IMG/VR virus record: IMGVR_UViG_2675903606_000003
Coordinates: 1 to 5,286 of that record
Reading direction: 5' to 3' (one strand)
Source: a virus
Lineage: Duplodnaviria; Heunggongvirae; Uroviricota; Caudoviricetes
Length of the DNA stretch: 5,286 nt
A program made the position numbers and the translations under genes. Numbering within the stretch: the stretch's first letter is position 1; the number at the start of each line of letters is the position of its first letter. Below are positions 3,315-4,920 of this stretch, piece by piece. Below the pieces are notes generated by a model that worked only from the letters and a program-made list of their open reading frames with translations, had not been told where the DNA came from and did no database searches.

Positions 3315-3614
3315 GGGTCAGAGTTTATATTGCCGGTCCAATGACGGGATATGAAAATTTCAACCGTGAGGCGTTTCACAAGGCGGAAGAGGAACTGAAA
3401 CGGGAAGGGCATACCGTCTTAAACCCGGCAGTACTTCCGGACGGGCTGACACAGCCGCACTACATGGATATTTGCATGGCAATGATTCGTTGTGTGGATG
3501 CGATTTACATGCTGAATGGCTGGCAGCGGTCAGCGGTCAGCGGGCGCTAAGGCAGAGCTGGCACTGGCGGAGAAACTGGGGCATGCAGTGATTTATCAGG
3601 AGGTGGCTCAATGA
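3311..3614 (+). pseudogene. DUF4406-like gene (nucleoside 2-deoxyribosyltransferase-like fold) disrupted by a +1 frameshift from a 7-bp tandem duplication
   Basis: GTG 3311 overlaps the upstream stop (GTGA) and follows AGGAGGTGA. The N-terminus RVRVYIAGPMTGYENFNREAFHKAEEELKREGHTVLNP matches my recollection of the DUF4406 signature. The frame terminates at TAA 3548-3550 right after the repeat CAGCGGT-CAGCGGT-CAGCGGG (3524-3544). The +1 frame then continues open (SAGAKAELALAEKLGHAVIYQEVAQ) to TGA 3612-3614, which overlaps the next gene's ATG 3611 (ATGA). Removing one 7-mer gives a single ORF of about 99 aa. Confidence 0.6.
3524..3544 (+). repeat. 7-bp tandem repeat (CAGCGGT x2 plus CAGCGGG) at the frameshift site
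   Basis: Read directly: cagcggt (3524-3530), cagcggt (3531-3537), cagcggg (3538-3544). Confidence 0.9.
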
Positions 3615-4072
3615 GAGAGGTTAACTATGAGGCGCTTCGTGAGGCAGCACAAAACTATCAGTCGACGCTGGCGTGGTATCAGGCTATCCCGGACAGCCCA
3701 AATGCTGAACGGGATTGTGATGCGGCTCTTGCTGCGTTTAAGCGTCACATCCGTCATCGGGAAGCGGATATTATCGCTGATTTGCTGGATGGACTGGAAG
3801 AAGCAAAATCACAACTCAAAGAGCAGCGTGAGTATTACGAAGGCGTTATCTCTGATGGGAGCAAGCGTATTGCTGAACTGGAAGCGCGGGAAGTTCAATT
3901 ACCGACTCGCTACGACCTTCGATATGGACACCCGATAAATGCAGATGAGCGACATGTCATGATACCTAAAGAAAATGGCAGTTGGCTTTACCTGATTGAC
4001 CTAGAACACGCATTACGCGTCTCTGGCATTCGCATCAAAGGAGAGGAGCATGGAAATAAAACCAGAGGATGA
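3611..4072 (+). CDS. Hypothetical phage protein (153 aa)
   Basis: ATG 3611 with AGGAGG at 3598-3603; stop TGA 4070-4072. Coiled-coil-like middle section (EEAKSQLKEQREYYEGVISDGSKRIAELEAREVQL). No family recognised. Confidence 0.7.
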   Translation: MREVNYEALREAAQNYQSTLAWYQAIPDSPNAERDCDAALAAFKRHIRHREADIIADLLDGLEEAKSQLKEQREYYEGVISDGSKRIAELEAREVQLPTRYDLRYGHPINADERHVMIPKENGSWLYLIDLEHALRVSGIRIKGEEHGNKTRG

Positions 4073-4406
4073 GTTAAGCAATATCGTTTTATTTCCGGTA
4101 AAAGAGGATGACCCTCGTAATCAGGTTAATTTTCTTTATGAGCCATCGGAAAGACCATATTGTCATCACGCCTCTGTTCGGGTTGACGAAAAAGAGCGCT
4201 AGGTCCGCTGTAAAATCTGCGGTGCGGTTGTGGAGCCGTTTGACTGGATGCTCTCTGTGGCGAAAAGAGAAACCAGACTGGCAGATGATGTAAGGCTATT
4301 GCGCCAGGAGGAACAGGAAAGGCGGAAAAATATAGAAAAGTTAATTCAGATTGAACGTAACGCGAAAGCGCGGATACGCAGGGCGACAAAATCCAGAACT
4401 GAATAA
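4050..4406 (+). pseudogene. Small zinc-ribbon-like protein gene interrupted by an in-frame amber (TAG) codon at 4200-4202
   Basis: ATG 4050 with AGGAGAGGAG 2-11 nt upstream. Translation: MEIKPEDELSNIVLFPVKEDDPRNQVNFLYEPSERPYCHHASVRVDEKER-TAG-VRCKICGAVVEPFDWMLSVAKRETRLADDVRLLRQEEQERRKNIEKLIQIERNAKARIRRATKSRTE, ending at TAA 4404-4406. The segment after TAG has no start codon with a Shine-Dalgarno, so it is unlikely to be a separate gene. Cys/His residues lie on both sides of the TAG. Confidence 0.5.
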
Positions 4407-4456
4407 ATAAATTTAGCGCTGTAAATAAAATCTAATCCTTAACTGGAGGTGTATTT

Positions 4457-4669
4457 ATGTTAAATACACAGAAAGCCATTAATGCGGAAAAATATAACGA
4501 GTGGGCAAGAAAATTCTCTGAGCAGATTTTTAAAATTACTGGCGATGAGAATGCGGCAAAAAATGAATTAGAACCGTGGACACCTGAAGGAAACGCACCA
4601 AATTATTGCTGGTGGGAGGTTGATCCGGTTGATGTTGCAAATGAAGCCATGAGTTACCACAACGATTAA
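4457..4669 (+). CDS. Hypothetical small protein (70 aa)
   Basis: ATG 4457 with GGAGG at 4445-4449 (7 nt spacing); stop TAA 4667-4669. Preceded by a 50-bp AT-rich intergenic region. Confidence 0.6.
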   Translation: MLNTQKAINAEKYNEWARKFSEQIFKITGDENAAKNELEPWTPEGNAPNYCWWEVDPVDVANEAMSYHND

Positions 4670-4678
4670 TGTCAGGAG

Positions 4679-4696
4679 GCCGCCTGAAAGGGCGGT
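4679..4696 (+). other. Short GC hairpin (CCGCC / loop TGAAAG / GGCGG) in the intergenic region
   Basis: 5-bp GC stem at 4680-4684 and 4691-4695 with a 6-nt loop. No downstream U-run, so not a classical intrinsic terminator. The stem abuts an AGGAGG at 4674-4679. Confidence 0.25.
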
Positions 4697-4701
4697 AAGA
4701 A

Positions 4702-4920
4702 ATGACTACATTATTCAGAAAAGAATATCCGAGAAAAAGTAGAGCGACAGAATTTTTGTTTCTCATTATATTTATCGTGTTGATGATACCGATACCCCCG
4801 CTATTACTGGTCTGGTTTATCGTGAAAATAATTGAGCCAGTTATTGAATTGTATAACGACGTGGTGTGGGCGTCGTTCAGCACACTGCACAATAAAATTA
4901 ATCCGTATAAGGAAAGCTGA
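4702..4920 (+). CDS. Small membrane protein (72 aa, one predicted transmembrane helix)
   Basis: ATG 4702; stop TGA 4918-4920. Hydrophobic stretch FLFLIIFIVLMIPIPPLLLVWFIVKII after a basic N-terminus (RKEYPRKSRATE). Local GC content is clearly lower than in the replication genes. Confidence 0.55.
   Translation: MTTLFRKEYPRKSRATEFLFLIIFIVLMIPIPPLLLVWFIVKIIEPVIELYNDVVWASFSTLHNKINPYKES

Follow-up and report, generated by a model that had tools for sequence, protein, structure and literature searches.

What does an in-frame amber codon signify in the middle of an otherwise continuous reading frame of a lambdoid prophage: an inactivated gene, an allele that depends on suppression, two separate genes or a sequencing error? 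The stretch of DNA analysed here (the window, 5,286 nt) is the complete contig CYAZ01000115.1 of the draft E. coli assembly GCA_001284505.1 (locus L011), in which the frame is represented by the 50-residue product CTT81767.1. Direct reading of the plus strand showed that the Shine-Dalgarno sequence AAGGAG (4038-4043), separated by a 6-nt spacer from ATG at 4050-4052, opens a frame of 50 sense codons that ends at TAG (4200-4202) and is followed in the same frame by 67 sense codons (4203-4403) and TAA (4404-4406), giving 118 codons in total. The strong Shine-Dalgarno, the positions and the codon counts are exactly those given in an earlier note on this DNA. The start lies within the 3' end of an intact upstream Ead/Ea22-like gene (3611-4072, plus strand, 153 aa), the two genes overlapping by 23 nt, and a scan of 3500-4800 for promoters and terminators returned nothing above shuffle expectation. 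Past the TAG, the first possible starts are GTG at 4230-4232, 28 nt away, and ATG at 4248, 46 nt away. The earlier note, which saw no separate start signal for the downstream part, was nearly right: the GTG has no Shine-Dalgarno sequence, yet gene callers start a 58-residue C-terminal fragment there, as annotated in other disrupted copies of the gene (for example ADD56532.1 of O55:H7 CB9615), and the ATG is preceded by GGAG, although by nothing longer, 12 nt upstream.

To identify the ancestral codon at 4200, we compared the gene with its homologs, as the earlier note had proposed. A 511-nt region around the gene matched 2,002 of 5,426 complete E. coli genomes, 1,662 of them over at least 80% of the query, and also matched Stx2a-converting and other lambdoid phages. 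In all four records fetched (E. coli EH2252, WP5-S18-ESBL-07 and CFT073, and phage ArgO145), the gene is annotated as a single 357-nt ORF of 118 codons, and DNA alignment placed CAG at codon 51 in every one of them. The alleles of EH2252 and phage ArgO145 share 356 of 357 nt with the window, the sole difference being C rather than T at 4200; these closest alleles read GCGCCAGGTC, whereas the window reads GCGCTAGGTC. At the protein level, E. coli homologs are 97-100% identical to the window protein with Gln restored at codon 51, and the exact 118-residue Gln51 protein was found on at least 1,000 contigs in a protein collection. More distant homologs came from Klebsiella, Kluyvera, Yokenella, Salmonella, Serratia, Pluralibacter, Erwinia and Yersinia, among other genera. 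The 22 diverse homologs that we aligned, down to 45% identity, are all continuous ORFs of 113-132 residues, in which position 51 is variously Q, E, L, T, R or K. Neither a two-gene arrangement nor a conserved stop was seen among the homologs examined, and because the four fetched homologs each have one 357-nt ORF of exactly the same length, the split in the window is not a chance juxtaposition of two ORFs. The ancestral codon at 4200 is thus CAG (Gln). Two independent genes with a conserved stop, the arrangement that would have spoken against the earlier note, are not what the homologs have; they are single intact 118-residue ORFs, one base from the window in the closest alleles, in agreement with its suggestion of a nonsense-inactivated gene. 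Judged by these matches, E. coli and Stx phages carry the gene very commonly, and it is conserved throughout the Enterobacterales.

The protein with Gln51 restored matched phrog_1621 over residues 1-117 (E = 1.5e-56), which places it in this family by full-length similarity. In the alignment of the 22 diverse homologs (alignment A2), C38, H40, C54 and C57 are invariant, as are R50 and a C-terminal block running from L84-R85-x-E87-E88-x-x-R91-R92 to I-E-K-L-I-Q-I-E-R-N-A-K-A-R-I-R. All codons of the family pattern, Cys38-x-His40 ... Cys54-x-x-Cys57 followed by the C-terminal NIEKLIQIERNAKARIR helix, are present in the window in one frame, with Cys38 at 4161-4163 and His40 at 4167-4169 on the 5' side of the amber codon and Cys54 at 4209-4211 and Cys57 at 4218-4220 on its 3' side. 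The uninterrupted ORF expected of a functional member is broken at 4200-4202. By this comparison, the window copy is a PHROG 1621 member by descent, but a pseudogene allele. The Pfam family PF08271 (Zn_Ribbon_TF, TFIIB-type) matched residues 36-73 with 21.5 bits (E = 1.6e-4), below its 29-bit gathering cut-off, so that the protein is not assigned to it. To call the frame zinc-ribbon-like, as had been done from the sequence, is nevertheless reasonable: the four invariant Cys and His residues speak for it, although the Pfam score does not reach the threshold. The AlphaFold2 model (mean pLDDT 76) consists of a disordered N-terminus, a small beta-hairpin ribbon (strands 43-46 and 51-54) and one long helix of residues 63-117, with pLDDT 84-95 for residues 71-110. 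Foldseek found no significant match to this model in the PDB, the top match being the TFIIB N-terminal ribbon (E = 0.15). A profile search of PDB sequences and an NCBIfam search of the protein gave no match, and a PADLOC search gave a single meaningless match of 11.6 bits. Taken together, the alignment and the model portray a protein in which a small zinc-ribbon-like module (CxH...CxxC) is joined to a long basic helix.

The second ribbon strand begins at the amber codon, which separates the C38/H40 pair from C54/C57 and precedes the whole conserved helix. Codons 1-50 (4050-4199) encode the N-terminus, the strand at residues 43-46 and the first half of the zinc-binding motif, so the 50-residue product would be a mostly disordered N-terminus with half a metal site. 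The untranslated remainder, codons 52-118 and the TAA (4203-4406), holds Cys54, Cys57 and the conserved C-terminal helix (LRxEExxRRxNIEKLIQIERNAKARIR). Such a product, deprived of the entire conserved helix and left with two of the four invariant ligands for the metal, is very probably inactive.

We then considered whether the T at 4200 is real. Carriers of the TAG allele were found by a contig search with the 50-residue product and subsequent alignment to the window. One is contig AIAU01000247.1 of GCA_000446445.2 (L010), which also appears in IMG/VR as UViG 2548876940 (L015); the other is the Logan assembly of ERR180862 (L014), with two further similar places. L010 and L014 overlap the window by 3,830 and 2,430 nt, respectively, without gaps and with one mismatch each, at different sites (window positions 2713 for L010 and 3372 for L014), and both also carry a 7-bp duplication present at 3524-3530 of the window. 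The window is a short draft contig, and a single-base difference is typical of errors, both of which would suit a true C at 4200 and an intact gene. Against this, the T is found in all of these sequences, assembled separately from other projects or runs, each set apart from the window by its own SNP and all sharing the duplication. With one different SNP in each contig, these are distinct data sets from very closely related strains, and a sequencing error, one of the options of the earlier note, is thereby practically excluded.

The allele is confined to few sequences. With a 55-nt probe that has the T at its centre, so that each 28-mer seed includes it, none of the 5,426 complete E. coli genomes matched, while the same probe with C, used as a positive control, matched 157 of them. 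Exact-pattern scans for the TAG allele gave no match in GTDB species-representative genomes or in JGI metagenomes and one match in IMG/VR, which is the same contig as L010. The only two matches of a degenerate back-translated pattern among genome contigs, in a Porticoccaceae MAG and a Bacillus, were discarded as chance. Most contigs matching the 50-residue product are not amber alleles but simply end at nt 149-152 of the gene, as is seen in the draft contigs L006-L009, L012 and L013. L007, L012 and L013 also hold a full-length copy with CGC at codon 50, the contig-end copy having CGT where it reaches that codon. The assemblies likely break right after the last distinguishing SNP (nt 150), and such contig ends create spurious partial "50-aa" proteins in databases. 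Together with the linked 7-bp duplication, the amber allele conveniently marks one clonal prophage lineage of E. coli.

How the mutation arose is suggested by its context. CCWGG is the Dcm site of E. coli, the inner C of which is methylated to 5-methylcytosine and yields T upon deamination. The ancestral context of codon 51 is GCG-CCAGG-TC, and the base that changed is the second C of CCAGG; the closest alleles have CCAGG where the window has CTAGG (4199-4203, plus strand), the mutated base at 4200 being the inner C of the former Dcm site. A stop could be created in the gene by 51 single substitutions, just two of which are at Dcm 5-methylcytosine positions (4200 and 4305), and by seven nonsense transitions, two of them at Dcm sites. 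The chance of hitting such a site is therefore about p = 0.04 under uniform substitution, but a Dcm-independent C-to-T transition would fall on one about 29% of the time (0.29 given a transition), so that the fit to a Dcm hotspot is suggestive and not proof. We consider it likely that the inner C of CCAGG, as 5-methylcytosine, was spontaneously deaminated, giving CTAGG and with it the C-to-T transition at 4200 from Gln51 CAG to TAG, and that the resulting mismatch escaped Vsr. Very-short-patch repair by Vsr normally reverts T:G mismatches in CTWGG/CCWGG (PMC2715241). The mechanism would be that of the dominant lacI amber hotspots, which arose at CAG codons within Dcm sites when 5-methylcytosine was deaminated (Coulondre, Miller, Farabaugh and Gilbert 1978, reviewed in PMC12606429). 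A second CCAGG site lies in the gene at 4304-4308, where the inner C is the first base of a CAG codon (Gln86); it is a potential amber hotspot and is intact here. A CCTAG at 4000-4004, considered as a second Dcm-type deamination product, is conserved in homologs and so is not a new mutation.

The amber codon is accompanied by a second lesion. The 7-bp duplication is a tandem duplication of CAGCGGT (3524-3530, plus strand) that frameshifts a DUF4406 gene, leaving 79 aa against the 98 aa of the intact homologs to which it was aligned. A frameshift noted earlier at 3524-3544 is thus real. The duplication and the amber codon are co-inherited, both being present in all three aligned carriers (the window, L010 and L014); the amber allele and this frameshift in the gene two ORFs upstream of it are fixed in a single prophage lineage of E. 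coli. The two damaged ORFs, among ten in the window, are both accessory genes. The DnaC-like ATPase, DUF1627, DUF977, Ead-like, 70-aa and DUF4014 genes are equal in length to their intact relatives, and the replisome-organizer has 352 aa against 372 aa in strain 2013C-3264, an in-frame length difference that probably lies in its repeat region. The decaying cryptic prophage that the earlier note saw in the two lesions is therefore only partly borne out: the lesions exist, but both lie in accessory genes, and the other eight ORFs are of intact length or differ only by an in-frame change of length. The contig is made up of replication and accessory genes and has no structural, lysis or integration module, so the lesions do not show that the prophage is defective. 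They fit a relaxation of selection on the accessory genes of a resident prophage, and it is plausible that the prophage is cryptic.

Two further observations concern the same stretch and its sister contigs. Nine plus-strand GTCACG hexamers, spaced by about 10-11 nt, lie in two clusters in the replisome-organizer ORF (303-1361), at 431-467 and 691-737 (also 738-784). Across the window the hexamer occurs 10 times against 2.5 expected, a count reached in none of 200 shuffles. These hexamers look like origin iterons inside an O-like gene, and they are followed by three copies of a 12-nt tandem repeat, ACAGATAAAGAT, encoding DKDT repeats. In the sister contigs, the stop codon of an HNH endonuclease gene is changed from TGA to TGG (L010 3466-3855 and L014 2066-2455), so that the protein gains 8 residues and has 129 aa instead of 121. 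With it the lineage has three unusual changes; the altered base is the first past the end of the window (5287), which ends at the "TG" of that codon.

Other disrupted copies of the gene were retrieved by a search with the 58-residue C-terminal fragment that starts at GTG 4230. Cys57 is changed from TGC to TGA in four contigs from different samples (L019, L020, L021 and L023), which come from metagenome assemblies and public sequencing runs; TAG is found at codon 44 in L022 and at codon 8 in L023; and O55:H7 CB9615 and two relatives (L016-L018) have a 5' deletion. The 58-residue ORF in CB9615, considered as a sign of the amber allele, was rejected as such, since that copy is broken by the deletion and still has CAG at codon 51. 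In L005 (6150-6180, Logan SRR27723757), the end of an IS629 element, identified as such from phage annotations, is inserted directly after nt 150 of the gene. The insertion is at the codon 50/51 boundary and thus coincides in position with the amber codon of the window. As read from these genomes, the disrupted copies show that lysogens tolerate loss of the gene; we infer from them that it is dispensable to the lysogen and that the loss may persist for this reason. One could go further and propose that knock-outs were selected because the lysogen pays a cost for the protein or is poisoned by it, and the several independent disruptions (the amber at codon 51, the Cys57 opal, the ambers at codons 44 and 8, the 5' deletion and IS629) would be in keeping with this. 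However, the copies were retrieved by a search that selects broken genes and are by themselves no evidence of an elevated loss rate: looking for shortened products biases the sample towards broken copies, while intact ones outnumber them by orders of magnitude, and the protein is strongly conserved from genus to genus, which points to purifying selection at work on the phage side. We thus regard it as unlikely that the zinc-ribbon/helix protein is harmful to lysogens under some conditions and that its loss was repeatedly selected, although, if this were true, the amber allele would mark an adaptive step of domestication and not neutral decay.

The remaining alternatives concern not why the allele persists but whether it is null. 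With a probability of roughly 0.85, we read the window copy as an inherited nonsense allele that has lost the function of its gene, a conserved accessory gene of lambdoid prophages with a product of 118 residues: C-to-T at 4200 creates TAG, so that translation from the Shine-Dalgarno sequence and ATG at 4050 would stop after 50 residues. The allele might instead be functional in a host with an amber suppressor (a supE-like tRNA-Gln with a CUA anticodon) or by natural UAG readthrough. A TAG derived from CAG is exactly the kind of allele that supE restores to wild-type Gln, almost any inserted residue would do given the six tolerated at position 51, and the 67 downstream codons are undamaged, the rest of the gene being identical to intact alleles. 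Low-level natural readthrough of UAG often inserts Gln and would regenerate some wild-type protein. Yet amber suppressors are rare in natural isolates, and no tRNA gene lies within the 5,286-nt window. Moreover, the downstream identity is equally expected of a very recent mutation, the carrier contigs differing by one SNP in 2.4-3.8 kb. Programmed stop-codon readthrough or recoding would call for a conserved stop and was rejected: position 51 is a sense codon in all intact homologs examined, and TAG occurs in none of the 5,426 complete genomes. Suppression or readthrough on a functional scale consequently appears to us highly improbable. Slightly more improbable still is a gene working as two pieces, a 50-residue peptide and a C-terminal helix fragment re-initiated at GTG 4230 or ATG 4248. 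Both starts are close behind the stop, the fragment would hold the most conserved block, and re-initiation after nonsense codons is familiar from lacI, but neither start has a proper Shine-Dalgarno sequence, no homolog is organised as two genes, and the zinc motif would be broken up, with C38/H40 on one chain and C54/C57 absent from both. A null allele is therefore the reading we retain, and ORFs 4050-4202 and 4230-4406 should be annotated as one pseudogene with an internal stop and not as two hypothetical proteins.

So read, the allele is an ordinary, already-understood phenomenon, a nonsense pseudogene made by a textbook gene-killing mutation, and it can be set beside several known systems. 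The intact family members WP_000403783.1, WP_000403785.1, WP_000403791.1 and YP_009907882.1 (Escherichia phage ArgO145) belong to PHROG 1621 like the window gene and share its Shine-Dalgarno sequence, start, stop and neighbours (the Ead/Ea22-like gene upstream and the 70-aa gene downstream); they have CAG at codon 51, whereas the window has TAG, which would block translation beyond residue 50. The phage amber alleles that are propagated with suppressor hosts, such as lambda Sam7 and Pam80, are likewise single ambers in lambdoid phage genes, and the window allele is in principle rescuable by supE or supF as they are. They differ in being laboratory-selected, conditional-lethal alleles of essential genes, while here the gene is a probably non-essential accessory one in natural isolates, with no suppressor tRNA gene in the window. 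Closer in setting are the pseudogenes of decaying prophages in E. coli and Shigella, which resemble the present case in the combination of a point nonsense mutation with a nearby small-repeat frameshift in accessory genes, and in the IS629 insertion, deletion and nonsense codons that break other copies of this gene; unlike them, the window has damage in just two of its ten ORFs, and its replication genes look intact. The lacI amber hotspots are laboratory mutants, in contrast to a fixed natural polymorphism in a prophage gene, but the change is the same, CAG to TAG at the second C of CCAGG to give CTAGG, so that the amber codon of the window would neatly illustrate, in nature, the amber hotspot that textbooks describe at Dcm sites.
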